Shown here: piece by piece, positions 10,305 to 61,400 of the stretch
How positions within the stretch are numbered: position 1 is the stretch's first letter
How the letters are laid out: every line of letters starts with the position of its first letter
DNA from: Eledone cirrhosa
Lineage: Eukaryota
Assembly: GCA_964016885.1 (NCBI GenBank)
Contig: OZ024742.1
Span: 354,640,001-354,704,000, forward strand
Direction: 5' to 3'
DNA length: 64,000 nt
Notes under the pieces: model-generated
The model's database searches: none
What the model saw: the letters and a program-made list of their open reading frames with translations, nothing else
What the model was told of the DNA's origin: nothing
Translations under genes and position numbers: made by a program

Positions 10305-10657
10305 CAATAATAATGGGGGATTAATCCTACTGTGACTATGACTACGACGACTAAAATCAACAACAACAATAATAATAATAAATGTGATGTTGATGGTGAT
10401 GATTACTAGAAAATGCTATTTTCATCATTTCTAAAATTAGCAAAACAATTGATGCTTTGGATAGGGTCAACCAGTAGTAGTTAGACATGCTCAACCAACC
10501 GTGAAGCCTAAACCAATCAACTTTAGTTATCCATTGAAACTACACACCGATTTGTCGAAATAGAGTTTGCAAGATTTCGCATTCTGGAGCCACTTTTCAC
10601 TGTATTTACCCATCTCATTACAGTTGAAAATTGCAAACTTGACTGTCAGCACACAAT

Positions 10658-10698
10658 ATGTACCTGATGATTGCGAAATCATGAAAGTACTTGTTCAA
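10658..10698 (+). ncRNA. Minimal type I hammerhead in pLTR (mirror copy at ~9390-9430, minus)
   Basis: tg(a/t)ac CTGATGA ttgc-gaaa-(g/t)cat GAAA gtac TT gttca; stem III is the AGTACT palindrome. Confidence 0.65.
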
Positions 10699-10809
10699 TT
10701 AACACTTAACATTTAATATTCTACCATACTATTTCATTCTAATACCATTATACATTTTAAAGGGTTGTAAATAAAACGAGTAAATCAGATAAAGTTTGAA
10801 TTCTTTTTA

Positions 10810-10852
<43 letters not shown>

Positions 10853-12778: not shown

Positions 12779-12849
12779 AATTTTGAAATGTATCAAAATT
12801 TATGTTCCATAATATTTCCTGCCATTTCTGAACCCTGAACTTATCTACC

Positions 12850-17435: not shown

Positions 17436-18135
17436 ATATATACGGAATATATGAAAATGGGTTTCTAAGCTATATGTTAAGCTTATATTAACTTTCAGCA
17501 GTAAGCGGCGCAAGGAGCGCTTTATTGATAAAGACTATCGCCAGAAACGATGACGTCATTATCGCTTCCTTCCCGTACATAGAATTATAGGAAACATTCT
17601 AGATGGCGCTGGGCCATCAGTTTTCAAACTCATACCTGAGTTTTTCTGACTCAATTGTCATAATGTTTCTCCCTTATATATTGACACGGAACATAATACA
17701 GATCTTACTTACTTACGACAATCAGCGCTAATAAAATGCAAATTAGTACGCCCATTTCAGGATATTACTTTAACTGATAGGTTATATTAGCCACTCGATC
17801 ACGTATATCCTTATTGTTGTTTCGGTCGATAGATGATATAATCTGATTAAACACAAATTATGCTTGTACAACGATGTTGATATGTGTATCTACTAAGATG
17901 CGTAAATGTATATACACATGTAAGCAGTCTCGCCACCGATGATGCGTGCCGAGTCCGCCGCCGCCGACCCGTTTGCTTGTGCGTCGCTGCCGGGAAATCC
18001 AGCCGACGACGCCCAAAAGACTGAATATATAGAGGAGTAACGTTAAGATATCTATGTTATTCTCCCGCAGTATGTCACTCTCTCTCCGCCCCTCTCTTAC
18101 TAGGTCGCTCTTTACTCTCACTCTGTCCTCTCTCT

Positions 18136-18169
<34 letters not shown>

Positions 18170-18363
18170 TTATACAAGTATTATTATTATTGTTAGCACG
18201 GATTAAAATTTTAAGCAAAATAGTTTCAGAGGATCCTGCTTTAGGCTGAAAGCAGCAATATTTTGCTTAATATTTTAATGTAGATATTTTTTTATATATA
18301 CAAATACATATGTCTACGGGTTTATATATATATATATGCTGTGTGTATATATATATATATATA

Positions 18364-18396
<33 letters not shown>

Positions 18397-18399
<3 letters not shown>

Positions 18400-18715
18400 G
18401 GAAAAAATGTAACGAAATTTAATTTCCCACTCTTAGTACGGCTGTTACTTAAATATAAGTATGTACACGTATATGTATACAGACGTACAGTAATATGTAT
18501 ATATATATATATATACGTACATGCACACATATATATATGTACGTATGGATTCACCAAACATTTATTATAATGCTCGGTGTGTTTGTAAACAAACATCCCG
18601 TATTAAGCCGCAGTGTCTAGCAATCACCGTTGCTCGTTTGTTCAACACTGACAAAGAAACGCTGTACTAGTTTCAAGCTTGTTAGCTATCGGAAATATAT
18701 AAGGAAAGTATATAC
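18397..18715 (-). mobile_element. Truncated copy of the 56-kb retrozyme-like family
   Basis: Reverse complement of ~56697-56995, broken inside the HHR core. Confidence 0.7.
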
Positions 18716-18719
18716 CTGT

Positions 18720-21700
18720 GGGCACACATGCATACATGCTCCCACACCAGATGCATATACTTGATGAGTCACCCCCTCATCCGTCTACCCAAGCGCCGGT
18801 GCGCAGATTATGCACACAGTATTGTATGAGACAACTCATTTGAGGCCTTGACCCAACATGATAACGTGGCGTTGTGAGTCCGAGGGTGCCTGCACTATAT
18901 GCCTAAATGTTACGGCAGCACAATATCCTTGCACTAATCGAATATAGCGTGGGTGACACATATATAAAACACCCTGTATGCTCATAACATAAAATAATAA
19001 AATAATATACAATAATAAAATAAAATAAGATAAAATACAATAAAATAAAATGCTGGAAAACCAGAATGCATACATGACAAGGATGCAGAGGGGGGCCGGC
19101 CATTATCAAAGTGTGCGTAAAGTTTCATACAATAGTTGGGGGCTGTGGTGCAAATGTTTATATGATATACATAGGGGCTGGTGCGCTAAGGCATTGGGTG
19201 GGAGCCTGCACATGATGCAGGTCTCGTTGTTGTGGATAGATGTGGGCCATGTGTTCGTGCCCAAACAAGTTATATATATTGTGTTTATGTGTAACATCCA
19301 TTTCATAAAAGTATATATGAGATGTGCATAGGTTTGGTGTATACATGGAATATAAAGGGTATGTGCTTCATAACAATATATATGGAATGCACGTGGAATG
19401 TATGTATGATGAAATGTGCCAGCGGCATGCGTTGTGTGATTGTGTATATCAGCGGCAGGGAACGACAAAATTAAAACTTGAAATCAAAATCGAAATTGCA
19501 ATTAAAATCAAAATTAAAATTAACATCAACATTACAATTAGCTGCAAAATTACTCTTAAGACCGGCATCATGTCCATAACGCAAGTAGCGGATTAAACAC
19601 CGCGAATCGAATATCGGAAATCAACAATTTAAAAACAAAAAAATAAAAAAATTATAATATTAAAAAACATTTTCGTAAAATCGTTCTTGATACAGTTTTT
19701 TTCTTTATTTTACTCTTTCTTTTTGAAATATGTATGGCGAAGTGTATCCTAAGGCTGTGTATACTAATGTTACTCTAAATATCCATATTATTTTTTTTTT
19801 TTCTATTCCCGCCAAACATTATTTATGATGAATGCCGCATACAGCATAATTGCGGTTGTGTCCTTGACCGATGCAGACTAAGGCGCCTAGGGTTAATGAA
19901 GACGTCCAAGTGATGCCAGCCGTTCATGATTTTAGCCCCTCTGCCACCACAGTAGTAATTCTGATACATGAATACATTTTGATTTACAGATAGAGAACGA
20001 AAAGAAGCAAGAAGAGGACAACCATGAGTGGCTAGAAATACCGGTGACGTATACAATTCGTAACCGCTCTTGGAATGACAACAGGATATAAATCAACAAA
20101 CAAAAAAATTCGATGTTAAAGGACTATAGGAAAAAATCTGCTTCGTAGAATCGAGGCGTATCCAACGACCGAGTGATTTCAGAGTCAGGTTCGATAACCA
20201 TATCGATCGTGCCTCGAGCTGGTCACCCGAGAAACAATTGTAATATGTCGAATAAATTCCTTTCGTCGGAACACTGCTTCTCTTTTTTCTGTGATATCAT
20301 ACTCTGCTCTACGAGGGCATTGAGTGCTCATACGGCCTATCGCATACGGACGCTTTAAGCATCCAACACCAATTATTTTGCTCCTCCACAAGTCGAGCGC
20401 TTGAAACGAATTGCCATGGAGAGATTCCAGTACTCTTCCTCGTCCAAAGACATCACGATACCTTCGGACAACACCTACCTTCGCCTACTCATCCACCACA
20501 CCAACTCATTTGTCAGGCGGATGAGATGGCTGGCCTTCCACTACGACCACGGGAATACACAACAGACTCAGGACATCCCACGCGACGGCCTTAGGAAGAT
20601 TTTCAAGTCCAGACGACACCCCCCGCACAATGGGGCACTAGAAACCTTCGAAAACCGCCTAGTAAGCATCGTAAGGAACATAAAATTCAACAGGATTGCG
20701 GCACGCGGAAACCAGTACCTGAAATAGCTCAGCGCCGACATTAAAAGCATGGAGAGTTGCCGTATTTACATGTACGTTCTGATAAGACGGGTAACATTTA
20801 CAGGATGAACCACGGAACCTAAGGAAAATGCATGGAGAAAGGAAGTAGAAAGATTTATAGGATTACGGGTCAGGACAACCTTGATAGAATCAACTACACG
20901 ACCAAAAACTTAATGACAGGACTGTAGCAGACAGGACAGAACAATACGTACCTAGAAAACCGCGGATTTCCATCAAGGAGCATCAATTATATTTTAAAGC
21001 AACCTCCCGGTTAGACTAATAGCAACCTCCAAGTCGGACCTAGGGAGGGCGAGTAAGAATATTATAGATAGGATACTGCTCACCTTTATAAATAGAAATA
21101 GACTTAGATTATGGACTTAAGGAGATAATAGAATAGTTTACAGCGCTGCCCACCAAGCAGCAAGTGAACTTTGTGCAACTTAACATAGAAAATCATTATG
21201 CGTCTATCTCACCATTAATTGTTAACAAGGCCCTCATGAGCGCTATGATAAGGTCCAACTCAACTAGAGGTGAAGTGGACATCATTATAGCTGCTACAAA
21301 GACACTCATTAGGTTTGACGGTAGACTGTGGGAAAGGAGGGATAGACCCGACAGTTTCGACATCACCATGGGATCGAGCGACTCCGCACAAGTGATGGAC
21401 TTGGTGGGAATTTATCTACTCCATAGGTTAGCACAGGAGATTCGAAGGATAGGCTGAGGGATATATAGAGACGACGCCCTATTTATATTCCTCTCATTAA
21501 ACTCTATCCAGCTGGAGCGCATCTCACATTTCGTTAAGCAGCACGGCTTGTCCGTGCTAATAGAAAATAGCACTAAGACAGTAAATTTCTTAGACGTATC
21601 CTTGGAACTGGATACAGGCTTATACCGACCATATCACAAGCCCAACAAGAACCTGCAGTATGTAAACAGGCACTAAAACCACCCCAAGTCGGTTATTGAC

Positions 21701-24700
21701 CCTATAGTGAAGGGGGTATCCAGCCGAGTATCAACACTCCTGCAATGTGTATGTGTTCAATCAGCACGCTGACTACTACAATGACGCACTGGGCAGGGCA
21801 GGGTATACAGAAGCCATAGTATATACCCCGACCAAGGGCAGGCCGCATAGCAAGGTACACAAACACCCGGATACCGTTAGTAAAAACTTAGGCAGACAAC
21901 CTACCCGTAAGCAAACACCCAACAGTATAGATAGGAGTATTATACAAGGCAGTGATAGCCGCACAACAGATAGACAGTTGAGGGAGCTTGGGAACCCTAG
22001 GGAAAACAACACATACGAACTTAACAGTAGTAACACCACGGACCAGGATGGGCAAACCATAGATAGTGAAGTAGATAACACAGCCCGGAGATCTAGGGGG
22101 TAATACCAAGACTAAGAAAACCAGCAATGATACGTCAGGACACTCGGGTAGCGGGAGTGAGACGGAAAAAAGGGCTAGCAACCGTGCCCAGAACAAATTA
22201 GCATGCAAAGGCCATTCAATAGACTTAAGTAACATTTCTATGCATCGGCATAGAATGTAGGGGACAATTAGGGGTAGGACCTAACCCGAGAGAGCAGCTT
22301 GACAATGCAAGCACCACTAGTAGCAGACAACGAAATTGAAATAGATCTAGAAACGTAACATGGTATATTGCACAATACTCGAAGCATGTACGCACTAACA
22401 TTCCAGGTCTCTTTTTCGGGCCATAGGGATGAGTGTTTCCCGGCTTCACAGAGGTACCACATTTTCAATCAGCACGCCGTGAAGTTCTCATGTTCCACAG
22501 CACCCAACATGGCGGACTACATGGCCAGGACCGGCGCGTTGAAATTCAGGACACCTCATGGGCGCAACGATTAGGCACCGGACCTGCCGGGGGAGGTGGT
22601 TGCGGGGAGTGTAGGCGGTAGTGGCTGATGGTTCTCGGGACGTGCTTGGGGAAGAGCCGAGGCTACGGAGTGCCCCATGCCAGCCAGTAGAGACCAGCTG
22701 GTAGTGAACATTGAGTCCACCACTCCCCCGGAGCACCACTCGAGGACCGGTGAAAACACAAATAAGACGCCAGGACCACGTAACGGGAGTTGCAAAAATG
22801 ATGTATGGACATGTAACTGCCGTTCCCGTGAGGAATGCCCTGTGCAGGGAATGTGCCTGACTAAGGGCGTTGTCTTCAGATGTGTGGTTACCACGCAGAA
22901 CGATAGGCACATATACATCCGAGCTACATCCACGACTTTTAAGTTGCGGAGATGCCACCAGAAGAGCTCGTTCAAGGACAGGAATGAGAGACATTCCACC
23001 AGATTGGCGGACTTAGTGTGGAGATTCACAGACAATGGCATAGATATGACCTCAGCTGGGATGTTGTATAGCATGCGAATGCGTACTCGGTCGGAGACAG
23101 GAACTGCAAGTTATGCCTGTCCGAGGCTATGGAGATAATAAAAATTAAGGGTGACGCAGTCAACCTCGTGTCTGAAATAATCATGGAATGTAGACATCAA
23201 CGTAAATGCACACTCTCCTCGGCCCAAGTGATACTGGATGGATCTACATAGCGCACTACCGCCACCGCATTACCTGGTGGAGCGCATGCAACGGACCACA
23301 ATGGAACACTGCATAACTATGAATTCATGACAGCACAAACTGATAGCAATCACAGTTCCAACGTTGCCCACCTCGTAGAACACCTTAATAGCACCACCAC
23401 ACCAATTGGGGGACGCCGACGGATTACAAGTAGGATTGGGTCTACAAACATATGTGTGCTTTTAAATTCTCAAATTTCTAAATTGTCAAACTTTTAAATT
23501 ATTAAATTGTTGATTTCCGATAATCGATACGCGGTGTTTAACCCGCTACTTGGTTGGTGGACATGATGCCGGTCTTTAGGTTAATGTCACAGCTAATTGT
23601 AATGTTGACGTTAATTTTAATTTTAATTTTGATTTTGATTTCAAGTTTTAATTTTATCGTTCCATGCCGCCGATATACACACGCACACAACGCATGCCGC
23701 TGGCACATTTCATCATACATAAATTCCACGTGCATTCCATATATATTGTTATGAAGCACATACCCTTTATATTCCATGTATACACCAAACCCATGCACAT
23801 CTCATATATACTTTTATGAAATCGATGTTACACATAATCACAATATATATAACTCGTTCCGGCACGCACGCAAGCCCACATCGATGCACAACAACGAGAC
23901 CTAAATCATGTGCAGGCTCCCACCCAGTGCCTTAGCCCACCAGCCCACATATATATCATATAAACATTTGCACCACCATGTTGGCATATTGTGCAGATAC
24001 CCTCGGAGTCACAGCGCCACGTGATCAGGTTGTGTCAAGGTCTCAACTGCGTTGTCTCATACAATAGTGTGTGCAATATCTGCGCACCGGTGCGTGGGTT
24101 GAAGGATGAGGGTGGAGGGACTCATCAAGTATACGCATACGGTATGTGAGCACGCGGGTGTATGTATGTGTGCCTACATAGACATGCAATAGCACGGGTG
24201 TGAGCATGCATGGGTCGATGTATTTGTCTGAGCATGTATGCGTGCGGATACGGATGACATTCCATAGATTGTTCTTTTCTCATCTATCTATATATGTGCA
24301 GAGTCTTGGCTATGCACGCTACTCTGAGTCCAGTGTGTGAGTGTAGAACTGGGTCTATTTGTTGAAAACACCTTTGATATAGTCCTTCCGCTTGAATGGC
24401 TGTTGAAAGTTTTTTTTTTTTAATTTAAAGAAAAAAACCTTCTTGATACAGGTTTTTTTCTTTTTCTTTTTCTTTTTCTTTTTCTTTTTCTTTTTCTTTT
24501 TCTTTTTCTTTTTGAAATATGTATGGCGGAGTGTATCCTAAGGTTGTGTATAAATGTTACTCTAAATATCCCCATGATTTTTTTTTTTAATTCCCGCAAA
24601 ACCTTATTTATGATGAATGCCGCATACACCATAATTGCGGGAGTATACTTGACAGATGTAGAGAGTACTAGACCGATGTAGACCTAGTGTTAATGAAGAC

Positions 24701-26124: not shown

Positions 26125-29100
26125 AGTTAGGGAAGCAGAAAATTGCTTATTGTGATCCAGTTCGTGGTTAAGAAAGCCAGTTTCATGGATGGTTTCAACG
26201 TACAGTTAGGGGTAACTCCAAAAGTTTGTAAAAATTCCGTTCAATCTTGGAGTATAATGAATAAAAGAGAAAACACAGGTAAGTATAAGAGAAGGATTTT
26301 ATCCAGGTATTTACGACCCTTTCATTGGTAAGTGCAACCTTATATTGCTATACTGCAAATAGCAGCCACTCAATTATAATTGTTGTTCACGTCAAAATTT
26401 TCAAAATAGTGAAGAAGTTACTCTGGAAATAGTTGTTAATATATAGAGAAAAACAATTTTTAAATTGTATTTACTCGTATAGAGAGAGGCGAATTAGAAA
26501 GTGAGGGGACACACGGAATAGTATAGAGAGAGAGGAAGGGTGAAAAGTGTTAGGAAGTAGAGTGACAAACTGAGATGGACGGAGGGGTAGAGGTGGAAGG
26601 ATTCCTTCATCAGTTTTTATATGTAGACTTCATGTCGTGGAATGTAGTGAGTTCAAGAGAATTAAATTCATATTAGTGGGAGGAATGGGTAGGGAGAGAG
26701 AAGGGGGGGGGGGGGGTAAAGAGATAAATATACATATAAAAAATAAAGATAAAGATAATAATTACTAAAATAAAAGCAAAGGAGTGCGGATAACGGAGGA
26801 AAGGAAATATAGCCAAAAGGGGAGGGAAGTAAAGAAGAAAGCGAAGAAATAGAAGAGGAATGAAGGAGAAGGGATGGATATAGGTATTGGTTTATGTGGA
26901 TAATTAAAAGGGTTTAGATACAACAAGAGGGTATAAAGGTCTAAGTATAAACAGTTTGTCAGATGGTAGTAAGAGGTTAAGGGTCGATTTGCTCTTAACG
27001 TGTGAAAACTTCTCTTTGAGTATATGGTTACAATAAACTGATCTTTCGATTTTTTGTTGAGTAACTTACTCTTCGATCTCAAAATGTGGAACAGCTCAAG
27101 GTCACATAATCAACAGCTTCTCATACCACTCCGATATGGGGGTGCGTCGATAATTTTTTCCACTTCAGGGTGTATTGATGGTTACTTTCCCTCAGTTGCC
27201 AGGTCTTGTTTGCAAGGGTAGTTACATAGCGATGCTGGGAATGTTTCATTGCGTAACGGTGTGTATACCAACGGGCTTTAAATATATTCCCAGTCGCTCC
27301 GATGTAACACCATTTCTGGTTGTCCGATTCCACTGTGCATTGGAAAACCAGGATAGATTGCATACATTCATTATGTAATGGACAGGTTTCAGGTAGGTGC
27401 CGGTTACAATTATTGTCATGGTCAACTTTGGCATTATTGGTACCCACACATTTAACCTCAATGACCACAAGGTACATTTTGATCATAACCCCACAATTAG
27501 ACTTATATGCGCGTCCAAATCGGACATCGGGAAAATTAGTAAACATATATTAGACATAGTCATAGGACAAATGAAGAATAAACTAGTGATTAAACTATGG
27601 GGTAACGCTTCCGAAACAATTAAGTGGTTTAACAATATAGCTAACAAAAAAGTATATAAATTTATACAATTTGACATTAACGACTATTAGTCCTCTATAT
27701 CCACCAACACCTTGGATAAAGCCTTAGCATTCGCCAAAGCCAATTCTAACCTAACAAACGACGACATAAAAATCATATCAGCTGCTAGGAAAACAATAAT
27801 TAAATTTGAAAACGCCTATTGGAACGTAAGGATAGATTAAATAAAATTGGCATCACGATGGGGGCTAACGACTCGGCTCAAGTCACAGATTTAGTATGTA
27901 TTTACATATCCCATAGTTTACAAAGTGAGTTTAGCGACCGTCACGGTGGAATCTACAGAGACGACGCCCTTATCCTAGTTAAGAACCCTATTAACCAAAG
28001 CATAGAAAGATTCCGTAAGAATTTTAGAAAGATTCTCGGGAACCTAGACCTTATCATAACATATGAGTATAGCACTAAAACAGTTAACTTTCTAGACGCG
28101 ACGCTTAACCTAAATACGGGAGTTATAAGACCTTTTCAAAAGATTAATGAAAACTTAGCATACATCAACTGTAACTCAAACCACCCACTATCCATAATTA
28201 AATCCATTCCGCACAGTATATCCCTTAGACTCTTCCGCCTCTCGTCTAACCGAAAAATCTTCGAGGAACATGCAGAATACTACAATACCGGATTAGACAA
28301 TGCGGGGCACTTAGATAGAGGAGAACGTTTAGATGAAAGCCACCGCAAAGCGCACACGAACACGCATAACACAAACTCTAGAAACACACGCACACACGCA
28401 CTTATTCAAAGAACTACAAAGTATACGGTAAATAGAAATACAACATCGAAATAAAACAAGTCACGCAGTAGAAAATATATTTGGTATAACCCTATATTTA
28501 ACACCTCTATTAGTACTAACTTACCCTCTACCTTCTTTAGAATAAAAAAATAAGCACTTTCCAGATTCACATAGATACACTATAATCCTTAACACTAAAT
28601 CTATTAGACTATCTTACTCCACGGCACCAAATATAGAGGCACACATTAAGATGCTTAACGCTAAACAGATACATAACAACACCAGAACACAAATTTACAA
28701 CAATAACAATACAATCACCCTTAAACACAACATAATATTTAATACACAACCACCCAATAATAGGCAAACAAAACGTAACACATTTGTACAGGCATCGCAG
28801 CCCACCAATAATGCCAAAGTTGCCCATGACAAGAATTGTAACTGCCACCTACCTGAAACATGTCCATTACATAATGAATGTATGCAGTTTAACCTGGTTT
28901 TCCAATGCACAGTGGAATCAGACAACCAGAAATGGCATTACATCGGAGCGACTGGGAATACATTTAAAGCCCGTTGGTATACACACCGTTACGCAATGAA
29001 ACATTCCCAGCATCGTTATGTAACTACCCTTACAAACGAGACCTGGCAACTGAGGGAAAGTAACCATCAACACACCCTGAAGTGGAAAACATTTCGAACG

Positions 29101-29990
29101 CGCCCCCATATCGGAGTGGTATGAGAAGTTGTCGATTATGTGACCATGGTCTGTTACACATATTGAGTTGAAAGAATAAGTTACTCAACAATAAATTCAA
29201 AAGATCAATTTATTGTAACCATAGACTCAAAGAGAAGTGTTCGCACTACAAGTGCAAATCGAACGCTTAACTTCTTACTACCAACTGACAAACTGTATAT
29301 ACTTATACTTTATACCCTCTTGTTGTATCTAAACCCTTTTAATTACCCACAAAAAACAATACATATATCCCTCCCTTCTCTTTCATTCCTCTTCTATTTC
29401 TTTGTTTTCTTCATTCCTTCCCTCCCTTTTGGCTATCTTTTCTTTTCTTCTTTCTCTCCCCTTCTTTGATTTTATTTTTGTCATTATTATCTTTATCTTT
29501 ATTTTTTATATATATATTTATCTCTATATATCTCCCGCTCTCTCTCTCTCTCTATCTCTCCCTCTCTCTCTCTCTCTCTCTATCCATCCTTCCCACTATG
29601 ATCAATTTAATTCTCTTTAACTCAGTACATTCCACGACATGAAGCCTACATATCAAAACTGATCAAGGAATCCTTCCACCTCTACCCCTCCCTCCATCTC
29701 AGTTTGTCACTCTACTTCCTAACTCTTCTCCCCCTTCCTCTCTCTCTATACTATTCCGTTTGTCACCTCACCTTCTAATTCCCCTCTCTCTATACTAGTA
29801 AAAACAATTCCCAAAAAATGTTTTTCTCTATATATTAAGAACTATTTCCAGAGTAACTTACTCACTATTTTGAACATTTTATAATTAAGTGGCTGCTATT
29901 TGCAGTATAGCAATATAAGGTTGCACTTACCAATAAAACGGTCGTTAATACCTGGATAAAATCCTTCTCTTAATGCTTACCTATGTTTTC

Positions 29991-35035: not shown

Positions 35036-35164
35036 TTTTAATATAGAAAAGCTTCCCCAGGACTAGAACTGTTTCATTCGTGAGAAGTCCTCCTCAGGAG
35101 CTGCCTGATGATTTCTCACGAATGAAACAGTTCTAGTCCTGTGGAAGTTTTTCTATATTAAAAC
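35036..35164. repeat. Short fold-back element with HHR-like core (CTGATGA 35105, GAAA 35124)
   Basis: About 50-bp inverted arms; a related arm lies at 41575-41635. Confidence 0.65.
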
Positions 35165-35231: not shown

Positions 35232-35273
<42 letters not shown>

Positions 35274-36860
35274 TATATTAATGAAAAAGAACAAAGGAAC
35301 TATTATGACATGATAACGAGTTTATTGCAGACAGCCGTTTCGTCCGACCATATGGTTGGACTTTTCAAGGCATAAAACTTGTGATTGTAAGTTCATTATT
35401 TACATCAACGTATCACTTAAGACTAGCAGTGTGAAATTGTGGTATACATCAGCAGCTCCGCTTGTATATGTGGGCCTATATTCTAAGAGGGCTCTTTTAT
35501 ATTAGTTGTCGGAATTGTAAAAGGGATGGGTTATGCGGAGTTAAGATAATTAGAAAATGGCCTAAGAGTAAGGGATTGAAGGTTAAAAATTAGATAATTT
35601 ATAATTTACGCATTAAAAATAAAAGACGTGGGATCTCGTAGAAGCACATTAAAAAATCCCTCAATAAGTGCATAAAGCTTACAAGCCCCAATAACCTTAA
35701 CAAACTAGAAGAGATTAAGAGACTAATGAAATAAAATAAAATAAAAAAATAAAGATATAAAGTTTCCGTAAAAAAATATAAAGTTTCCCAAGAAGTTCCT
35801 TCGAGAGAAAAAAATTTCTTTCGAAAGAAAAAAACTTTCTTCCCCAGAGATCTCGTTAAAAAAATTAAGAAAATTTACGAAGTTTTGATAATCCCTACTA
35901 AGTTGAAAGAAACTAATCAATTAAAGGTTAATTCAAAAAGCCTTCAATAAACCCCTCAGAAAAGGCCCCTTTAATATTTTTAATAGGAACCTCCTCCGAG
36001 AGACCCTTCGAAGAATTAAAATTTTAGAGAGCCTTTAAGGATATATATAAACGAATTGAGGAAAATTATAAATTAAAAGTTAAAAATTACGGTATTTGGG
36101 ATATCCGAGGAATTTTCAAAGGGCTGCTTCAACAGATACAACTTAGGTATACTAGATAAAATAATTTAAGTAATTTAAGTAATTTAATTAGGGAGCAATT
36201 CAAAGAGCTTATCAAGTTGGGCAAGATTAAAGAAAATTATAAGTAAGAAATTACATAAGCAAAAGGACAATAATTATAAAATGTATTTTTAAGAAGGTAT
36301 AAAGTAGCTTCACTAATCTAATAATGTACTATCAAAAAATTATTATAAAATTATTACAAAATTATCATAAAACTATTGATACAGGATTAAAAAATTACTA
36401 TAAAATTATTGATACAGGATTAACAAAGACATAATAATATATTCCTGCCTAATTAACAAAAAATCAATAAACAATTAACAGTCAAGCAAAATTAGCTCAG
36501 GGATATCCCGCTCTCGGATACTTTACACACATACAGCATCACATATGATTAACAAAGACATAATGTTATAATCCTGCGTAATTAACAAACAATTAATTAA
36601 CAATTGATAGTCAAGAAAATGTACTCAGGGATATCCCACGCACGGATACTTTACACACATACAGCAGGATAAACAATACAGGTGACCTTGTGGGCGCGAT
36701 ATCCATTATGCGTATGTAGTCATCTGCATAGCTCCAGGCACATTTGGTCTTGTTTAAAAGTTCAGAGTTCACGAATCAACTGGGATTCACTATCAGCTGC
36801 GTGGACTCTCTGGTAAATGTACCTGTGGATCAAATAGCTATTGGTTGCTGGGTGTGGTCC

Positions 36861-38155
36861 TCAAAGCAATTGTTAAGGGAGTATCTAGTAGGATTAGCGG
36901 ACTATCTAGCAGTGTGACCGCATTTGAAGCGAACGCGGAGTATTACAATAAGGCGCTAGCTGGGTCAGGGCACAAAGATAAACTCCATTATGTAGAGACA
37001 GGCGGCACCACCCCACCACCCCAACCCAGCACTGTAATCACGCATGATATGTCCATGGGAGATAGAGGGAGAGCTAGAAAGACGAATAGGGACAATAGGA
37101 ATTTAGCTAAGAACAACAACACTAGCAATGCAGACACGGATAGGGCCTACGCGCCTGGAAAGCACTACGCCACCCCAAGCAAGTCCAACAGTAAAAACAG
37201 GGGCCTGAGGCCTAGGAGACTCGAGACCAAAACACATACCACTGGAAGCCCAGCAACCACACGTGGTAGAACCCGTAATAATATAGATGAAGGGAGGGTA
37301 AGCAGCATAGGGGATAAGAAACGCAGTGGAAGGAATAGAAGACGTGATAGAACCTTCTTTAACCCGCCCTTCAACTCTAATGTTACTACAGACCTCACCA
37401 AATCTTTTTTCTCTTTAATAGATAGGAACTTCCCCCCAGGTAGAAGGTACGGTAGTGTCATCAATAAGAATACTATCAAACTATCGTACTCAGCAACCCC
37501 TAATCTGGCCTCACACCTAGCTAAGACCAATAAGAGTAAGATTAAAGAGGGACTTAAGGCCATCCGAAATAGTGAACCACGCCAGTACACACGACAACAC
37601 GGGACCAACCCATTGAGTGAATGACCCAGGGGGATAACAGGCAATATAACCGGTCCCACTAGGCAGCCCCGCGGCCGTTTGGAGGGACACGCACCCCTGA
37701 TTGAGGAGCAGGACCCTATTAGAAAGTGTAATTGGAGACGGAAGGGCAAATGCCCACTAGCTGGACACTGCCTTATTAGGAACGTGGTATATGCATGTAA
37801 CGTAACCACAGACACGTATACTAAGACATATGTGGGATCAACCGCTAACCAGTTCAAGACGAGATTCAACGCCCACCAGCATAGCTTCCGATATGAGAAG
37901 CTTAAAAATACCACGTCGTTAGCGGGACACATACATAACTTAAAACAAACAAAAAACCCCTACACACTAAGCTGGAGATGCCTTACTATAGCTCCTCCAA
38001 ATAGCTCGTTGAGCAGGTTTTGTAGCCTGTGCCTAACTGAATCTCATGCCATAGTATTCTCAGGACTCAACTTGCTCAACAAGAGATCATAAATCTTCTC
38101 GTCCTGCCCCCACAATATACTTAGCTCTTTCTTTTTCTTCAGACCAGACACATAG
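36861..38155 (+). pseudogene. Naiad-type thumb, linker, Zn finger and GIY-YIG
   Basis: VSSRISGLSS..YYNKAL..SG; FFNPPF; IKLSYS; CNW..KGKCPLAGHCL; YVGST..FKTRF; CSLCLTE; LNKR. Confidence 0.9.
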
Positions 38156-38347
38156 CCCTGACCCCACCCTATCCTGCACATGGCTGCCCCGCTGGCGAAC
38201 AGGGTGCTCCTTAGTAACCCCGTCCGCATTGATGCCTCGGCTGCCCTATTGCCGATGGGGACTCTGGTGAGGAACAGTCGACCCTGTGTCCCTATTGCCA
38301 ACCTGGGATTGGTGGCAGCATTGTTGTTGGGCACCCTGCGGGCAGAT

Positions 38348-38605
38348 GATGCCTGCGGTGTAGTACATTGTGAGTGCCTGGACCCACGTTGACTAATCTG
38401 GGGAGGTGCCATCGGAGATGTATTTCAACAAATTCGGGAACTTGCCCAAGGAAACAGTAACAGCACACCCAATATGGATGCCTGTGGTGTGGGACATTGT
38501 GAGTGCCTGGACCCACGTTGACTAATCTGGGGAGGTGCCGTCGGAGATATATGTCAACAAATACGGGAACTTGCCCAGGGAAACAGTAACAGAACACCCA
38601 ATATG
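38348..38605. repeat. 129-bp tandem duplication in the PLE 3' UTR
   Basis: Two adjacent similar copies starting gatgcctg at 38348 and 38477. Confidence 0.85.
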
Positions 38606-40925
38606 GCGGCCGCTCCCTGCCTATAACCAATCAAACCCCCTCCTCCCCTAATAAACCCCCGCCCAAATATATGCCCCTCCCCATTCTCCCCCACTCACTT
38701 CTTTTGAGTTAGTTCTCCTTTATTATTAGTGGTTCTTTTTGAGTTAGTTCTTTATTAAAAGTGATATTTTGTATATTACCACGGTTGACTTAATGGGCAT
38801 GGAGAATTGACTCCCTTGATGTCTGACCACTCGATAAGTTAGGGGTTGTGCCCCTTGCGCAGGGGTGTGTCTAGCTGGTCTACCTGCTCTCTGCTACGAC
38901 CCGAGACTGGACACGGTCGTAGCCACAGGCCAGCGCGTGCGCGATAGCATGGGATATAATTTGTTTGCTAGTCACCCCGTGTAATATGATACCCCAAGAT
39001 TCCATGCATGAGATTCACCGAAGCATGCGCAGTCTTAACCGGGAGATGAGAAACGAATTTGAAAATAACACAAGAGAGACCCTTTGGATAGCGTAGACGC
39101 CGGACCATGCCCGCAAATATATACAGACCTGTCTTGAATATGCATGGCTAGCGCAATATGGATAACGCGACCAAAATCTAAGCTTGAACCGACCCCTACA
39201 ACAGACAAATAGAGGACAGCCCTTCGCATTTGACCAGTCGCGTGTGTGCTTGGAGTTCGTAGTATACCACCCCAGTCAAATCCACACTGGTTTTTTTACC
39301 AATATAGCATGTAAACCAATACATCCTATGCAGCGAGACCTTGGATTAAGAACCGGCAGCGTGCAATCCCCGAAACTAAAAGATCGAACGGACCACACCC
39401 AGCAACCAATAGCTATTTGATCCACAGGTACATTTCCCAGAGAGTCCACGCAGCTGATAGTGAATCCCAGTTGATTCGTGAACTCTGAACTTTTAAACAA
39501 GACCGAATGTGCCTGGAGCTATGCAGATGACTACATACGCATAATGGATATCGCGCCCACAAGGTCACCTGTATTGTTTATCCTGCTGTATGTGTGTAAA
39601 GTATCCGTGCGTGGGATATCCCTGAGTACATTTTCTTGACTATCAATTGTTAATTGATTGTTTGTTAATTACGCAGGAGTATACCATTATGTCTTTGTTA
39701 GTCATATGTGATGCTGTATGGGTGTAAAGTATCCCTGAGCGGGATATCCCTGAGCTAATTTTGCTTGACTGTTAATTGTTTATTGATTTTTTTGTTAATT
39801 AGGCAGGAATATATTATTATGTCTTTGTTAATCCTGTATCAATAATTTTATAGTAATTTTTTAATCCTGTATCAATAGTTTTATGATAATTTTGTAATAA
39901 TTTTATAATAATTTTATAATAATTTTGTGATAATTTTATAATAATTTTTTGATAGTACATAATTAGATTAGTGAAGCTACCTTATACCTTCTTAAAAATA
40001 CATTTTATAATTATTTTCTTTTAAAAATACATTTTATAATTATTGCCCTTTTGCTTATGTAATTTCTTACTTATAATTTTCTTTAATCTTGCCCAACTTG
40101 ATAAGATCATGAATTGCTCCCTAATTAAATTACTTAAATTACTTATTTTATCTATTATACCTAAGTTGTATCTGTTGAAGCAGCCCTTTGAAAATTCCTC
40201 GGATATCCCAAATACCGTAATTTTTAACTTTTAATTTATAATTTTCCTCAATTCGTTTATATATATCCTTAAAGGCTCTCTAAAATGTTAATTCTTCGAA
40301 GGGTCTCTCGGAGGAGGTTCCTATTACAAATATTAAAAGGACCTTTTCTGAGGGGTGTATTGAATGATTTTTGAATTAACCTTTAATTGATTAGTTTGTT
40401 TCAACTTAGTAGGGATTATCAAAACTTCGTAAATTTTCTGAAATTTTTTAACGAGATCTCTGGGGAAGAAGGTCTTTTTCTTTCGAAAGAAATGTTTTCC
40501 TCTCGAAGGAACTTGTTGGGAAACTTCATATTTTTTTACGGAAACTTTATATCTTGATTTTTTTATTTTATTTTATGTTATTAGTCTCTTAATCTCTTCT
40601 AGTTTGTTAAGTTTATTGGGGCTTGTAAGATTTATGCACTTATTGGGGGATTTTTTAAGGTGCTTCTACGAGATCCCAAGTCTTTTACTTTTAATGCCTA
40701 AATTATAAATTATCTAATTTTTAACCTTCAATCCCTGACTCTTAGACCATTTTCTAACTCCCCATAACCCATCCCTTTTACAATTCCGACAACTAATATA
40801 AAACAGCCCCCTTAGAATATAGACCCCAAATATACAAGCGGAGCTGCTGATGTATACCACAATTTCAAACTGCAAGTCTTAAGTGATACGTTGATGTAAA
40901 TAATGAACTTACAATCACATGTTAT

Positions 40926-40974
40926 TTGCCTTGAAAAGTCCAACCATATGGTCGGACGAAACGGCTGTCGGCAA
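40926..40974 (+). ncRNA. Type I hammerhead with U3-A8 core (mirror copy 35325-35373, minus)
   Basis: ttgcc TTGAAAA gtcc-aacc-atat-ggtc-ggac GAAA cggctg TC ggcaa. Confidence 0.8.
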
Positions 40975-41533
40975 TAAACTTATTATAATGTCATAATAGT
41001 TCCTTTGTTCTTTTTCATTAATATTTCTGCTCTGCTTATACGCATAGAGCTTAACTAGCTACCGTCGCATATTTGGTAGGTCCGACGTGATCATCGCGAT
41101 TCACATACGACCTACCATACATCTTGCTTATATATATATATATATATATAATCTGTCCTAAAGAGTTTGTCTCCTGATGTGTTCGAAGCTCGAGATTTTA
41201 TCCATAATAGGATATATCAAAATGCGGACGAGACCCGGGGTTAGCGACATAATCCTGGTATGTGTATAAGCATTTCTTGTAACTTTAATGTTATACTTAA
41301 TAGTGTATGGTTGACCATGTATTTAATCGATTTCCACGTGCTGTTGAAATGTTGGGGAACATTCCATGGCGGTTGGCCGCGAAGAGATTGCTGTCGTTTA
41401 TTTATTTTCTATTTCTTCATAGGTGCCTTTTAATCTTATAGCCTGGTCTAATTTATTTTTTGTGTGGTTAATTATGCTAATTGGGAGAGAAAATGGTGTA
41501 TATATATTATCATATGATTCTATGGTCATACTT

Positions 41534-42751: not shown

Positions 42752-42861
<110 letters not shown>

Positions 42862-43571
42862 ATAATAATAAATTTGAAGACTAAAATCCAAAGAGGACTC
42901 GATAAGGATAAATATATATCAAATATATAAGAACCGTTTCAGAAGATCCCGTTAAGGGTGAAAGCAGCGATTCTTTGCTTAAACTTTAATCTGTTATTTT
43001 AATAAATATATATATATATATATGTATATATGCAGAGGTTATATTTAATTTGTTGGAATTCAACAAGCTTAACAATTTTAAACTAATTATTAATATTAGA
43101 TTATTAAATTAAATCTTTAATATTAAGGCAAATTTAAATCTTTAATTTTGATTTCTAATTTTGAACCTATCATTATAAGTATTGTAATCAAAACGTAATG
43201 AACCCTGAATTATAAATATTTCTGTTCCACGTTAATCTTATTTCTTCTTTAACTTAGATATACTTACGCTGTGTATATTTCTCCTTTGAAACTTATTTCT
43301 TCATGCACTCTATCTTCACTATCAATATATATAATCGTTCTTTCTTTCCTCTTCTAAAATTCTCCCTTCTTTTTTCTTTTCTTCTCTCTCCCTTACATAT
43401 CATGTTCTTCCAACAGTTTAAATAAACCGTTATCTTTTCAACCTTTCGGCCACTCATTTGCATACTCACTCATAACTTTGTATTACCCTCAATATCCAGG
43501 AAGCTCCAACCGTTAAGGTTGTCAATATTTATTTATAAATATTGTCAATATTTATTTATAAAACAAATCTG

Positions 43572-43636
43572 TATTTTATCTGATGAAAGCGTACCATAAT
43601 TTGTCTTGGTTGCCCTTGAAATATGTTTAATAAAAT
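43572..43636 (+). ncRNA. Type I hammerhead, 5' pLTR
   Basis: tattttat CTGATGA ... GAAA tatgtt TA ataaaat. Confidence 0.75.
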
Positions 43637-47335: not shown

Positions 47336-47400
47336 TATTTTATCTGAAGAAAGCGTACCATAATGTGCCTTGGGTGTCCTTGAAATATATATAATAAATT
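47336..47400 (+). ncRNA. Type I hammerhead, 3' pLTR
   Basis: tattttat CTGAAGA ... GAAA tatata TA ataaa. Confidence 0.75.
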
Positions 47401-47907: not shown

Positions 47908-52503
<4,596 letters not shown>

Positions 52504-55099: not shown

Positions 55100-55365
55100 A
55101 TAGCCGGTCAATACACTCTTGCATCTATCGACCGAAGCAAAAGCCTGAGCAATGGTTGACCAGCAGTCACCCATGCATGCCAGTTTCCCCTCTCGAAGCC
55201 ATTGGCCGATATATCTTCGCACTAGTGACGTCGCAACTCATTTCTAAAGCTGTGTAAACAGGAACAATGTGAAATAAAGTGTCTTGCTCAAGAACGCAAT
55301 ACAAAGTCTGGTCCGAGAGTCAAGTTCACAACCTCACGAATGTAAGCCCGACACACTAACCACAA
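55100..55365 (-). mobile_element. tRNA-derived SINE with V-domain-like motif
   Basis: Minus strand gtggttagtgtgtcgggc...ttcttgagcaagacacttt. Confidence 0.6.
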
Positions 55366-55396
55366 CATATTTCACTCAATATATATATATATCCAC

Positions 55397-56152
55397 TCAC
55401 ACTATGCTAAACCCATGATCTCCAAATACCTGATACTCAAAAACTCAGCAATGTCCAGTAGTGCTAAGTTTAATATTCTGATGCAGTTCTCTGGCTACAA
55501 CCAAAGAGACCGAATCAGAGTATACGAAGGAGCCACGGAGAAGTATAAGACCCTCATAGAACTAGACATGAAAGGAATTTGCCCATTATACAGGAGCAAA
55601 TCATGGAATAGCTTAGACAGGACTAGACATAAGATAGGGAAAGCCACCCCATGGTACGACAAACAGAGATACCAGAGTGTCATGTTGGTGGACGCTACCC
55701 CTGGAGGGAAATTAGCTAACCAGTGTAGAAAGGCCCGGAGAAAGATCCACTTAAAGATTAAGGTGGTAGAAAAGCCAGGAACCACCATAAAATCCCTGAT
55801 CAGCTAAATCTACCCTTTTAAGAAAACCCACTGTACTAATAGGAAATGTATTATATCTAAAGTAAACCCCCGGATAAACTGTAAAACTAGAAACGTAGTC
55901 TATAGCATAAGATGTACAGAGGGTACTTGCAGAAACATGACAACAGCATACACAGGCGAGACAGCTCGTAGCATAGGTGGAAGGATAGACCAACAATGGG
56001 GGGAACAAAAAGGACGAAAACAAAGTTCAGTACTATACGAACATGCCAGATAATAACACGAAGGTAACATAGACAACATAGACATTAGAATAATATCTAA
56101 ACATAGAAATGACCCAGCAGATAGGCAAATCAGAGAGGCCAGCGAAATAGAA
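55397..56152 (+). pseudogene. Third PLE lineage: thumb, linker and GIY-YIG fragment, cut off by the adjacent palindrome
   Basis: YAKPM..SA; SGY; LYRSKSW; TPGG.L; IKVVEKPG; C....C; VVYSIRC..C..YTGETARS; RQIREA. Confidence 0.8.
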
Positions 56153-56154
56153 CT

Positions 56155-56995
56155 GTATACATACATACATATATGTAGACAGACGTACTGTAGTATGTAT
56201 ATATATACATACATTCACACATATATATATTTATGTGCGTATGGGTTTACCGAACATTTATTATAATCTTCGGTTTGTTTGTAAATAAACATCCCGAATT
56301 ACGCCGTACAGTGTTCGGCAACCATCGTTACCCCTTTCGTTCAACACTGACAGAGGAACGATGAACTAGTTTCAAGCTTATTAGCTATCGTCAGCACCGT
56401 ATACCTTCCTGTCAGATGATTGAACGTTTGAAAGTATATACTTTCCCTATGTATATTAACGGCTGAGCGGACTAATTTGCATATCGAGAGAGTTAGTCGG
56501 GCGGGCGTACCGAAAACAATAAGTGGAAAATAATGAAATGAAATTTCATTTCATTCTTTTCCACTTATTCTTTTCGGTACGCCCGGCCGACTAATTCACT
56601 CCATATGCAAATTACGCTGCTCAGCCGTTAATATACATAAGGAAAGTATATACTTTCAAATGTTCAATCATCTGACAGGAAGGTATACGACGCTGACGAT
56701 AGCTAATAATCTTGAAACTAGTTCATCGTTCCTTTGTCAGTGTTGAACAAAAGGGCAACGATGGCTGCCGAACAACGTACGGGGTAATTCGGGCTGTTTA
56801 TTTACAAACAAACCGAACATTATAATAGATGTTCGGTAAACCCATACGTACATAAATATATATATGTGTGAATGTATGTATATATATACATACTAATGTG
56901 CATCTGTATACATATATGTATGTACGTATACATACATATATTTAAGTAACGGCCGTACTAAGAATGAGAAATGAAATTTCATTTCATTCTTTTTC
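56155..56995. mobile_element. Inverted dimer of a ~433-nt non-coding HHR unit (retrozyme-like)
   Basis: Axis at 56543/56544. HHRs at 56358-56400 (minus) and 56687-56729 (plus): acggtg CTGACGA t-agct-aata-agct-t GAAA ctag TT catcgt. Confidence 0.8.
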
Positions 56996-57306
56996 ATATA
57001 TATATATATATATAAAAACAAATAACGAAACGAAATTAAATATCGTTTCGTTTGTAACTCACTTTTGTATGACTGACGCTTAAACAATTAAGTTAAAAAT
57101 GTACATCCACATATGTATACTGAAATACTAGTAGGCATATGAATACACACACGTGTACATATGTAGATGTACCGAGTTTTTCACTGGTCACTTTACTGTG
57201 AGTGTCCAGCTATACTGTATTTAAACACACAGACAAACCGGTTTCTAGAGTCATACTGGTTTTTGAGGAAACACCTTTCCTCTATTCTTCAGAAAGCCAG
57301 ACAAGG

Positions 57307-57351
57307 AATATTGGACTAGTTTCGATGTTGTTACATCTCATCAGCAATATT
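57307..57351 (-). ncRNA. Canonical minimal type I hammerhead
   Basis: aatattg CTGATGA gatg-taacaa-catc GAAA ctag TC caatatt; GUC triplet. Confidence 0.92.
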
Positions 57352-57772
57352 TACCTATCTTCCGGCCTTTCTAGAGAATCGTAAAAGCACATATCGTAAT
57401 ATGCTTTTTCTATGAAAATTAGTAGTGGGCAGACTAATTTGCATAGAGCGTGAGTACGTACCGGTTCAACGGAGACGATAAAAACAAATAACGAAACGAA
57501 ATTAAATTTTGTTTCGTTTGTAACTCACTTTTGTATGACTGACGCTTAAACAATTAAGTTAAAAATGTACATCCACATATGTATACTGAAATACTAGTAG
57601 GCATATGAATACACACACGTGTACATATGTAGATGTACCGAGTTTTTCACTGGTCACTTTACTGTGAGTGTCCAGCTATTCTGTATGTAAACACACAGAC
57701 AAACCGGTTTTTAGAGTCATACTGATTTTTGAGGAAACACCTTTCCTCTATTCTCCAGAAAGCCAGACACGG

Positions 57773-57817
57773 AATATTGGAGTAGTTTCGATGTTGTTAC
57801 ATCTCATCAGCAATATT
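57773..57817 (-). ncRNA. Second hammerhead of the dimer (stem III mutated, CUC triplet)
   Basis: Identical to the first except ctag>ctac. Confidence 0.8.
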
Positions 57818-57965
57818 TACCTATCTTCCGGCCTTTCTAGAGAATCGTAAAAGCACATATCGTTATATGCTTTTTCTATGAAAATTAGTAGTGGGCAGAC
57901 TAATTTGCATAGAGCGTGAGTACGTAGCGGTTCAACGGAGACGATATATATATATATTTATATAT

Positions 57966-58190
57966 ATAAAAATAACAGATTAAAGTTTAAGCAAAAATCG
58001 GTGCTTTCACCCTTAACGGGATATTCTGTTTCCGAAGATCACGTTAAGTGTGAAAGCAGCGATTCTTTGCTTAAACTTCAATCTGTTATTTTATTAAATA
58101 TTTGCCCTACGGTTATATATATTTGATGTATATTTATTATTATCGAGCCCTCTTTGGATTTTAGTCTTCAATTTTATTATTATTACTATA
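57966..58190. repeat. Small dispersed family with fold-back (relatives at 18190-18295 and 42858-43010)
   Basis: Shared gatcccgttaagggtgaaagcagcgattctttgcttaaac; inverted arms at 57966-58095. Confidence 0.6.
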
Positions 58191-58429: not shown

Positions 58430-61400
58430 GTAATAAATGGAAACTATATTTATAAAACCATATTTATTTCATCATATATATTTCAAGGATACCAAGTTAA
58501 ATTATGGTATGCCTTCATCAGACAAAATACAATATATAACAGTTTTATAAATAGACATTGTCGTACTCTTTTAAAAGTGACCGTTGCTTTTGGAGGCCAC
58601 CAGGATAGTCGTTTGTTTACTTTAGTAAGTCATAGTGTTATGAGTAAGTAAAAAGATGGAGAGGGGGAGAGAAACGTAGAGAAAAGAAAGGGAGAGATAG
58701 ATAAAGAAAAAGAAGAAAGCAAAAAGAAAAGAGAACAGAGGAAAATAACGGGGAGATATCAAACCATCAGACAGAGAAAAAAACTTAACAGAGTGATATT
58801 TAGAGATAGAGAGAGGAGGAAGAGAACGAAAACCTCAAGTTATGTCATATTAAGTTGAGTTAACAATTGAGATGAAATGAATAAATAAAATTAGAAATAT
58901 TAATATTCATGAATGGAATATAGATATATAATATGAGAAATTACACATTGTTTAATTATGATTAGATATTTAGTTTAAAAATTGAGATCAATATATTAAA
59001 AATTAGAATTTAAACATTATAAAATATATATATTGCTAGAGAAATTACCTATCGTATATCACATACACATAGGCAAAGGTACATAAATATATATATATAC
59101 ACACTCACTCAGAAAATACACATTATCTCTACTCCCGAATATAATATATACATACAAAGCATAAGTGATTTTTTATTTATTGCTATACATTCCTTGTGTT
59201 ATTAATTAAAAATTAAAAATTGTTAGTATATATATATAAATGTATAGGATTAACTTTCATGCATTTATGGCTGTTATAATCATAAAAAGCATATAACACA
59301 TGTATATGCATGTCAACACACATATATAGATACATAAGCCGCATACAGACATAAGTATACATCAATATACAACATAGTACAATTGAGTATGTAAAATACA
59401 AAAGGATTATATTTTGGAAATATAATGATATCAATATAACTTAAAAGGCAAACGAATTCTACAAATATCAAAATACCAAAATATCCCAAAATATTATAGA
59501 ATATTTTAAGTTAAAATAATATGTTTAATATATTTAGTATAGAAATTTATCTTACGTATATTTTAATCAAGATATTGAAAGGACAAACTTTTGAAAATCA
59601 GCTATCAGAATAAAAATAAATCTAATAAAAAAAATATGAGAAGCTATCAGGATAAAAAAATCTAATAAAAAAAAAAAAATAAATGAAAAAAAAAAAAAAA
59701 AAATAATAATAATAATAATAATAATTAAAAAAAAAAAAATAAATAATAAAAAAAAAATAAAAAAATAAAAAATAAAAAAAATAAATAAAAAATAAAATGA
59801 ATATAATAAAAAAATAAAAAAAAAAAATAAAATAAAATATATCAATAAATTTAAAAACAAGGATTCTACAGATATCAAAATATAAAAAAATGAAAAAAAA
59901 AAAAAAAAAAAATTAAAAATAAAAAAAATAAATAAAAAAAAAATGAAAAAAAAAAAAATAAATAAAAAAATAAAAAAATAAAAAAAGTTTAAAAAAAAAA
60001 AAAATTTTAAACAATTTTAAAATATAGAATATTTCAAGCTAAAATATGTTTAGTATAGAAATTTATCTTACGTATATTTTCAAGATATTGAAAGGATAAA
60101 CTTTTCTAGAATAGTTGATTATATTTATAATTATATTTATGAAGAACATTTATACTTGGGTTCTTAACCAAAGAAAATGAAAAAGGTGAAGGAATCTAAT
60201 GATTTATCGACAGGTTTCATATATTAACTAAATTACTTAATTAATTAAACTACATTTTAAATTTATATTTATATTTAAACGTTGAGTTCAATCTATGTCT
60301 GCAGCAACTGAATAAATTATTCCTTAAATTAAGGGAATTTTTGGTCTTTAATATAAAAAATATTTCCTCTAGACAAAGATCACAATTTTCTGAAGAGGAA
60401 CTAAAAGGAGTAGCTTGAGAAATAATTATCCAAATCAGCGAATATTCAATATTATCTCGTTTTAGGACCCATAATAGGCTAGATAGCGAAGTTGAAGATT
60501 TTTTGTTTGGATCTGTAAAATAATTTTTATGATTATTGAAGCGGGATTTAAATTCTGTAGAGGTAGAACCGACATAATTAAATTAATTTAAATTAGTTTT
60601 AACATTACAATTATGAACTACATTTTTAGCTAAGCAGTTGTTATTTAACGGACAGTTGGATTTATTTCTACAGTTACAGTTATTCGATTGAATATTGCTT
60701 GGGTTATTATTGGTATTTTGGTTAGGTTTTAAATTTCTATTATTAATTCTATTAATAGTTTGCGCTAAATTGTTGGTGTAAGTTAATGTTATAGTATGTC
60801 TATTAAAAATTGAGTAATATTTATGTGTTCTAGGGAACCGTTTGTCAAGAGCTTTAAAGAATTGTTTAGCAATAGGGGTTGTAATATTTAGTGAGAAAGG
60901 AAGAGCGAACCATAATATATTCTAGTTCTATTTCTTTTTCAGCTTTCGGAGTTATTGTAATATTTTCTATTATAGTTGTTGAAATTGTTACCATAATTAA
61001 AGTTGTTATTATTTTGGTTATTTTGTATATTATTATTATTATCGATGTATTTAATTTTATTTCTATATCCTGCTCTACCTAACGCTTCGTTGTAATAATG
61101 CGTTTTTTTCATCAAATATATTCTTATTAGATGAAATTCTTGAAATTCGTTCTTGAACAAAGTTCACTATAGTATTTTTAACGGATCTGGGGGTGATTAG
61201 AGTTAAAATTGACATAATTTAAGTTTTCATTTAGGTTGTGAAATGGATAATGAAGACATGTGTTGAGATTTAGTGTTACATCTAGAAAATTGACTATTTT
61301 ATGGTTATTCTCTATTTCTACTTTTAGATTAAGGTAATTAAAAACTTGTATAATTTGTTTTCTTTTTCTATTTAGTTCACAGCTATTATTTTCTATAAGT

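Follow-up and report, generated by a model that had tools for sequence, protein, structure and literature searches.

The 64-kb window, i.e. the whole stretch of DNA that was analysed, is AT-rich DNA, probably of animal type, and contains many TA tracts. It harbours two highly repetitive non-coding families with units of about 450 bases, A (433 nt) and B (466 nt), whose features are collected in Table 1. At its locus A is a partial tandem of period 433 nt: after the unit, its first 34 nt occur once more, comprising the terminal hairpin and the U-rich tail, and (TA)n comes next. B is a head-to-tail dimer (57012-57946, minus strand) with (TA)n on either side and, because its ends sit inside TA tracts, a target-site duplication, which in retrozymes exceeds 4 bp when present, would be indistinguishable from the tract itself. 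The GC content of both families is 0.35-0.36, and the longest ATG-initiated reading frame in a circular reading reaches only 71 aa in A and 50 aa in B. The ORF that precedes the left arm of A (55346-56153) has no Pfam match and a weak one (E 4e-5) to the Pfam GIY-YIG protein of the window.

Table 1. Coordinates of the A and B units and of their neighbours in the window (strand "." for the TA tract).
Feature	Position	Strand	Evidence or remark
Broken Penelope-like ORF with a GIY-YIG-like end, cut where the left arm of A begins; lies outside the unit, as host of the insertion	55346..56153	+	Translation; E 4e-5
Inverted A copy, left arm, joined head to head at the hairpin, 3' end about 63 nt shorter	56154..56552	-	92% identity
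Type I hammerhead core of the left A arm; no damage in stems I-III, stem II with a U.U at its base	56364..56394	-	
Octamer ATGCAAAT, A left arm	56475..56482	-	
Family A unit, right arm of the palindrome, 433 nt from hairpin to hairpin	56535..56967	+	34-nt direct repeat 56535/56968, spacing 433 nt
Octamer ATGCAAAT, A right arm	56605..56612	+	
Type I hammerhead core (C3-H17) of the right A arm, with damage to stem II (56710) and a GUU triplet	56693..56723	+	
3' end of family A with its U-rich tail and terminal hairpin, adjoining (TA)n	56968..56996	+	Fold z -1.9, weak
(TA)n tract at which A and B meet tail to tail, common to their 3' ends	56996..57013	.	
Family B unit 1 (B1), 466 nt	57012..57477	-	TRF period 466, 97% matches
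B1 terminal hairpin	57024..57052	-	z -2.4; B2 equivalent at 57490-57518
Type I hammerhead core, B1, GUC triplet	57314..57344	-	Rfam HH9 E 7.7e-8, below the gathering score
Octamer ATGCAAAT, B1, 5' arm of a 13-of-14-bp hairpin	57437..57444	-	
Family B unit 2 (B2), upstream in sense, 5' end at (TA)n	57478..57946	-	11 differences from B1
Hammerhead core, B2, stem III broken (ACUACU)	57780..57810	-	
Octamer ATGCAAAT, B2	57903..57910	-	
Third A copy, 5'-truncated within the ribozyme, octamer absent, 3' end at (TA)n	18394..18699	-	79-82% identity

At the 3' end, one arm of the A palindrome is about 63 nt longer than the other, with 35 nt of this difference located before the hairpin (one locus). The two arms have the letter of the window in common, as opposed to the alternative seen in public runs, at 9 of the 22 positions listed, including the GUU triplet, which suggests that both arms stem from one insertion that decayed later. 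Beside B, at 57960-58101, lies a third small family of inverted repeats, also near TA tracts and with related copies at 42855-43023 and 18223-18299.

The original prediction treated A and B as distinct families that cannot be aligned by eye, and a description of this kind must be abandoned. Global alignment pairs them end to end at about 66% identity (66-67% on ungapped columns), with scores above those of all 300 dinucleotide shuffles (z 13.2 and 10.0). When the octamer 15-mer and the ribozyme core are left out, the score still exceeds every shuffle (z 9.8), and the non-TA stretch behind the ribozyme taken alone gives z 5.2. Judged from these alignments, A and B are two diverged, homologous families, and the order of octamer, hammerhead and hairpin is common to both because of their common descent. 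The octamer is ancestral to A and B and, because the families are homologous, its presence in each of them provides no independent evidence; the argument from convergence fails.

Hammerhead cores, which had been proposed for the two families, occur in all four units and are of type I. Rfam Hammerhead_HH9 matches B1 (E 7.7e-8) and B2 (E 6.9e-5), both under the gathering score, and gives no match in A; miRNA-family matches returned by the sub-gathering Rfam scan of the units were discarded as hairpin and TA artefacts. The ACUAGU stem III announced for both families is present in three of the four units, B2 being the exception with a broken stem that reads ACUACU. In structure predictions B1 folds into stems I-III, with stem I extended and bulged (z -3.3), the left arm of A folds likewise (z -2.0) and the right arm as it stands gives no hammerhead fold (z -1.0). 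Between A and B, 10 of the 26 consensus pairs of the hammerhead region differ on both sides, compensatory changes that come from four sequences and effectively from two lineages. In the public runs described below, the majority letter at 56710 (96-100%) restores stem II of A, whose cleavage triplet is GUA in 80-94% of the depth (GUU in the window copy); that of B is GUU in 69-82% of the depth in the runs of the organism labelled A and GUC in X5 and X6. The pair 57325/57336 in stem II of B varies at matching shares on its two sides, 35%/33% in X1 and 29%/31% in X21 (shares only, the molecules not being linked). The repaired stem II, the majority triplets and the variation at paired sites point to selection on the hammerhead fold. 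A palindromic stem III of two pairs is described in PMC4209133 for the type of hammerhead that works as a dimer, and the palindromic ACUAGU stem III would probably assist cleavage of the A and B transcripts by allowing them to dimerise.

Other hammerhead-like cores (CUGANGA, hairpin, GAAA) are found in the window at 58481-58521 (-), 43580-43621 (+), 47344-47385 (+), 47996-48027 (-) and, as an inverted pair, at 35072-35127. They sit near Penelope-like 3' ends or short palindromes and none has an octamer 70-100 nt upstream.

The units were also expected to end in a hairpin just before (TA)n. This hairpin is exact in the right arm of A (56968-56985) and again at the centre of the palindrome (56535-56552), but it is approximate in B, absent from the end of the left A arm and, in B2, located at the internal tandem junction. 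The more general proposal of a ribozyme cassette with a terminal hairpin at the end of the insertion is supported. In the Poseidon system, reverse transcription is described to start in a stem-loop and AT-rich DNA to be nicked, cleavage being unnecessary for insertion in vitro (PMC11167929). By analogy to Poseidon (PMC11167929), we infer a role of the terminal hairpin in recognition or priming by a reverse transcriptase (RT): most likely, the hairpin would mark the start of reverse transcription and, in A, also the fold-back point that gives rise to the inverted arm.

Beyond the window, a 937-nt stretch was compared with four public runs (X1, X5, X6 and X21), skipping the TA-rich interval 56840-57029. 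The A/B stretch fits 4659 contigs of X1, keeping in mind that summed contig depth does not equal copy number, and 33,659 of the 12,467,656 RAD reads of X21 (0.27%). X5, which bears another organism label, contains 16 contigs over both families, one of them across the head-to-tail junction of B; here the A hairpin lies directly upstream of the start of the A unit, and copies of A start at 56603, 56629 and 56666, each with 92-106 nt of foreign flank. X6 contains a single 495-nt contig with a period of 465, which corresponds to a closed B cycle (465 nt); a tandem DNA array or a circle would give this equally. Four opposite-strand joints were found in X1 and X21. Loose ends at 56662, 56752 and 56768 represent further A subfamilies beyond 80% likeness, one of which resembles the copy at 18394-18699.

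A and B are probably non-LTR retrozymes, that is, non-coding tandem units with type I hammerhead motifs. They display the features of animal non-LTR retrozymes that a sequence can reveal, a target-site duplication aside: one hammerhead per unit, head-to-tail units of a few hundred bp, absence of coding capacity, low GC, multiple copies and a predicted circular RNA that is strongly self-paired (circular MFE z -5.6 for A, -7.0 and -9.8 for B, 25 shuffles each). Animal retrozymes are described in similar terms (PMC7229834; 10.64898/2026.07.22.740005), namely as non-coding tandems of less than 50% GC with a canonical type I hammerhead, a strongly self-paired predicted circle and two related families in one genome, and the axolotl HHR_Amex2 has a U.U mismatch at the base of stem II, as in A. 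With 433-466 nt, A and B stand at or just above the size of 150-450 bp given in PMC7229834 and within the 51-972 bp of 10.64898/2026.07.22.740005. They differ from animal retrozymes in their head-to-head inverted arrangement and in their targeting of TA tracts.

According to the model that we favour, a tandem array of A or B would be transcribed and the transcript cut by successive hammerheads, this predicted self-cleavage releasing a monomer that contains the whole unit including the octamer. The monomer may be circularised by a host ligase, as retrozymes of axolotl and mussel have been shown to be in vitro (PMC7229834). Acting in trans, a Penelope-like RT/GIY-YIG protein would then reverse-transcribe the unit RNA into (TA)n. 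This copying would start at the terminal hairpin and would often end prematurely or fold back, which would produce the truncated and inverted copies. Cleavage, circularisation and the Penelope partner are steps that we infer from the sequence. Counted against the model are the report that only 1 of 9 predicted retrozyme dimers was cleaved in vitro (10.64898/2026.07.22.740005), the dispensability of cleavage for Poseidon insertion in vitro, the size of the units, the length of the 3' extension in the right arm of A and the result that no autonomous element in the 64-kb window shares the 3' end of A or B. A link between retrozymes and Penelope has already been proposed (PMC7229834; 10.64898/2026.07.22.740005). 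Penelope-like elements are described as having 3' ends in common and ragged 5' ends, with 5' copies in inverted orientation and a bias towards microsatellites (10.1101/2021.04.23.441226), and A and B follow this insertion pattern with an inverted 5' copy, 5' truncation and a microsatellite/AT target. Inverted, truncated and TA-targeted copies are circumstantial support for a mobilisation of the Penelope type.

Many Penelope-like ORFs are present in the window, with Pfam GIY-YIG matches in 2 of the 6 ORFs scanned. Long palindromic Penelope-like insertions with RT-like and GIY-YIG ORFs are found at 47955-52244, 35271-41028, 26439-29833, 19245-23877 and 9270-10817; their arms are 87-98% complementary and the insertion at 47955-52244 folds back at 50090-50114.

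The inverted copy, the TA-tract ends, the hammerhead and the frequent 5' truncation are all hallmarks of Penelope, and A adjoins a GIY-YIG-like ORF at 56154, so that A and B might simply be 5'-truncated pLTR/3'-UTR remnants of autonomous Penelope-like elements. The pLTRs of these elements indeed share with A and B a type I hammerhead, a short palindromic stem III and partial tandems (PMC4209133, PMC11167929, 10.1101/2021.04.23.441226), together with inverted 5'-truncated copies, a 3' extension at one end, AT-rich targets and a start of reverse transcription in a stem-loop. We nevertheless consider such an origin unlikely: the sequence upstream of the octamer is the tail of the previous unit and not a coding sequence, which holds for the two arms of A and for B as well as for X5 and the X6 cycle, and the adjacent ORF is cut mid-domain by the 3' end of A, in opposite orientation. 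Unlike the pLTRs, A and B have no ORF, and they carry hammerheads of the canonical, not the minimal, kind; in the right arm of A the 3' extension is about 63 nt (one locus) versus 30-40 nt for the Penelope tail. The unit encodes no RT plus GIY-YIG ORF, and its start follows its own tail. On these sequence features, A and B do not belong to the autonomous Penelope elements. It would also be conceivable that the ribozyme is a relic and that A and B spread at the DNA level, by recombination or replication slippage, as satellites or fold-back (MITE-like) repeats, given that the window contains a perfect palindrome and a tandem dimer and that the ribozymes of the right A arm and of B2 are decayed. 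This is very improbable in view of the compensatory changes, of the catalytic cores, which are intact in the majority, and of the polarity of the copies: 3' ends are shared and 5' ends ragged, and the inverted arms are copies of whole units, not short terminal repeats.

Within the retrozyme model, the octamer calls for a separate discussion. It is exact in all four units at the predicted places, and the predicted distance of 80-92 nt to the downstream CUGANGA core also proves correct (80 nt in A, 92 nt in B1 and the same offset in B2). The longer 16-mer ATGCAAATTAGTCYGC is exact in three of the four units and has 2 mismatches at 56605, the very copy that had been quoted for it. In the reading that we favour for it, the octamer may be a POU-binding distal element of the snRNA type that would let one unit drive the transcription of the next. 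Cleavage at an equivalent position in every unit of an array would leave a full copy of the element in each monomer. We advance this identification tentatively and regard a promoter role of any kind as plausible, if somewhat short of probable. An snRNA-type promoter is defined in PMC3499247 by an octamer (DSE) and by a PSE, the essential core element; a ZNF143 motif is a further feature of such promoters. The octamer is present in A and B, but no PSE has been identified in them, the host PSE consensus being lacking and no snRNA gene for comparison being found in the 64-kb window; this is counted against a promoter role. A TATA-like box is absent between octamer and ribozyme in A and B. Read ends at 56610/56613, 56786/56789, 57089 and 57436 were considered as transcript ends and rejected: they coincide with AATT sites and are interpreted as RAD restriction cuts.

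Alternatively, the octamer could be without any transcriptional role, kept as the arm of an RNA hairpin or by shared ancestry, and the arrays could be transcribed by read-through from outside, a reading that we judge neither probable nor improbable. Each of the four units indeed has a downstream arm with which the octamer arm pairs (10, 9, 11 and 11 of 12 pairs), this partner reading as a degenerate inverted octamer, and the octamer hairpin region of B folds with z -4.8. That of A alone folds poorly (z +0.5), however, 9-19% of the 12-mers in the A and B units have a comparable pairing partner, and the consensus structure given by RNAalifold does not contain the octamer hairpin. A hairpin would also not explain why two bases of the octamer are kept although they are left unpaired, the C in each of the four units of the window and one A in family A, nor why the partner arm and other stems drift and the octamer arm does not. 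In the window as a whole, the octamer by itself shows no enrichment (8 occurrences versus 5.6 expected, with 19 of 100 shuffles reaching 8). The longest exact match between A and B, 14 nt versus 9 nt for the ribozyme, includes the octamer but is not significant as a longest run (P 0.08-0.29, end gaps trimmed; 0.38-0.82 for the 11-nt run with the right arm of A). Looking at the site itself, identity between A and B is 8/8 in the octamer versus 11/20 in the upstream and 12-13/20 in the downstream flank, and the site-specific chance is 0.04 for 8/8 and 0.003 for 14/14, for a site picked after the fact. In X1 the depth increases between 56602 (102k) and 56615 (704k), with a small rise in X5 (265 to 321), which would speak against the absence of a transcriptional role but is confounded by alignment loss near the private differences of the copy. 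Base +2 after the octamer is variable in 57% of the X21 reads of B; the octamers are without variants among 40 of the 151 variant rows listed, which the row density makes uninformative. In one further A subfamily the partner arm pairs better with the octamer arm (by eye).

An absence of transcriptional role would also agree with a scan of metagenome contigs for the succession octamer, gap and hammerhead, which returned at least 107 loci, 34 of them passing a stem test and falling in 19 clusters (there being no background denominator for these counts). Among the passing loci listed, the distance between octamer and hammerhead takes scattered values (70-99 nt) and the tetranucleotide that follows the octamer differs in 19 of 19 clusters, as by chance, so that there is no sign of a general octamer-hammerhead rule; none of the loci listed resembles A or B. 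Many of these loci (L003, L006, L024, L034, L043 and related) carry type I hammerheads in which stem III reads ACAUGU and a U bulges out at stem II. The largest cluster comprises 11 of the 34 passing loci listed, and these loci are probably DNA of host animals.

A promoter carried by a ribozyme unit would not be without precedent. Newt satellite 2 can be likened to A and B by description and is an amphibian repeat. Its unit is about 330 bp long, and its promoter reportedly includes an octamer and was tested in oocytes. The satellite is presented as a hammerhead tandem repeat with an internal snRNA-type promoter in work (Coats, Zhang & Epstein 1994) cited in PMC2220036, and as transcribed by Pol II in PMC6765202. 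The Sm-alpha hammerhead SINE-like repeats of Schistosoma also have a promoter followed by a hammerhead, in tandem, one unit transcribing the next (PMC6765202), but their promoter is of the Pol III type. A tRNA-type Pol III promoter was rejected for A and B, which lack an A box; a B-box-like 6-mer is present in A only, and B contains internal T4 runs. The main text of PMC7229834 names no endogenous promoter, the "promoter" that it mentions being T7. In the literature covered, which for PMC7229834 meant the main text, no octamer was found described in a retrozyme besides newt satellite 2, and none is present in the files covered (all but one) of the supplement of PMC4209133.

How the reportedly abundant RNAs of animal retrozymes are transcribed, and which enzyme moves them, is mostly a matter of hypothesis, and two diverged families with a fixed octamer provide a specific site to mutate. 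It is tempting to speculate, with due reserve, that A and B represent an invertebrate retrozyme clade in which each unit has its own snRNA-type (POU/Oct) promoter, with a perfect octamer facing a degenerate inverted one. If true, a unit-borne promoter would solve the problem of promoter loss in retroposition, as in newt satellite 2, and the scars of Penelope insertion would be borne by a ribozyme-containing non-coding unit. If the octamer is inert, A and B would be an ordinary pair of retrozyme families.

A solo octamer at 17736-17751 (+) matches the A/B 16-mer at 15 of 16 positions. It lies outside any A/B copy (context 17440-18120) and was rejected as a third family member; no snRNA was found downstream of it. 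Nearby are an 8-mer near 17552, which we take to be CRE-like, and a GC-rich stretch at 17930-18020, and the region 17440-18120 is possibly a host promoter. At the gathering threshold, the only Rfam match across the window is a tRNA-like segment at 2090-2145 (+; 36.8 bits, model positions 8-63). This segment immediately follows a TA tract and is possibly the head of a SINE. Finally, the interval 12832-14190 (+) contains a Thr-rich, low-complexity ORF of 452 aa made of 72/108-nt tandem repeats.
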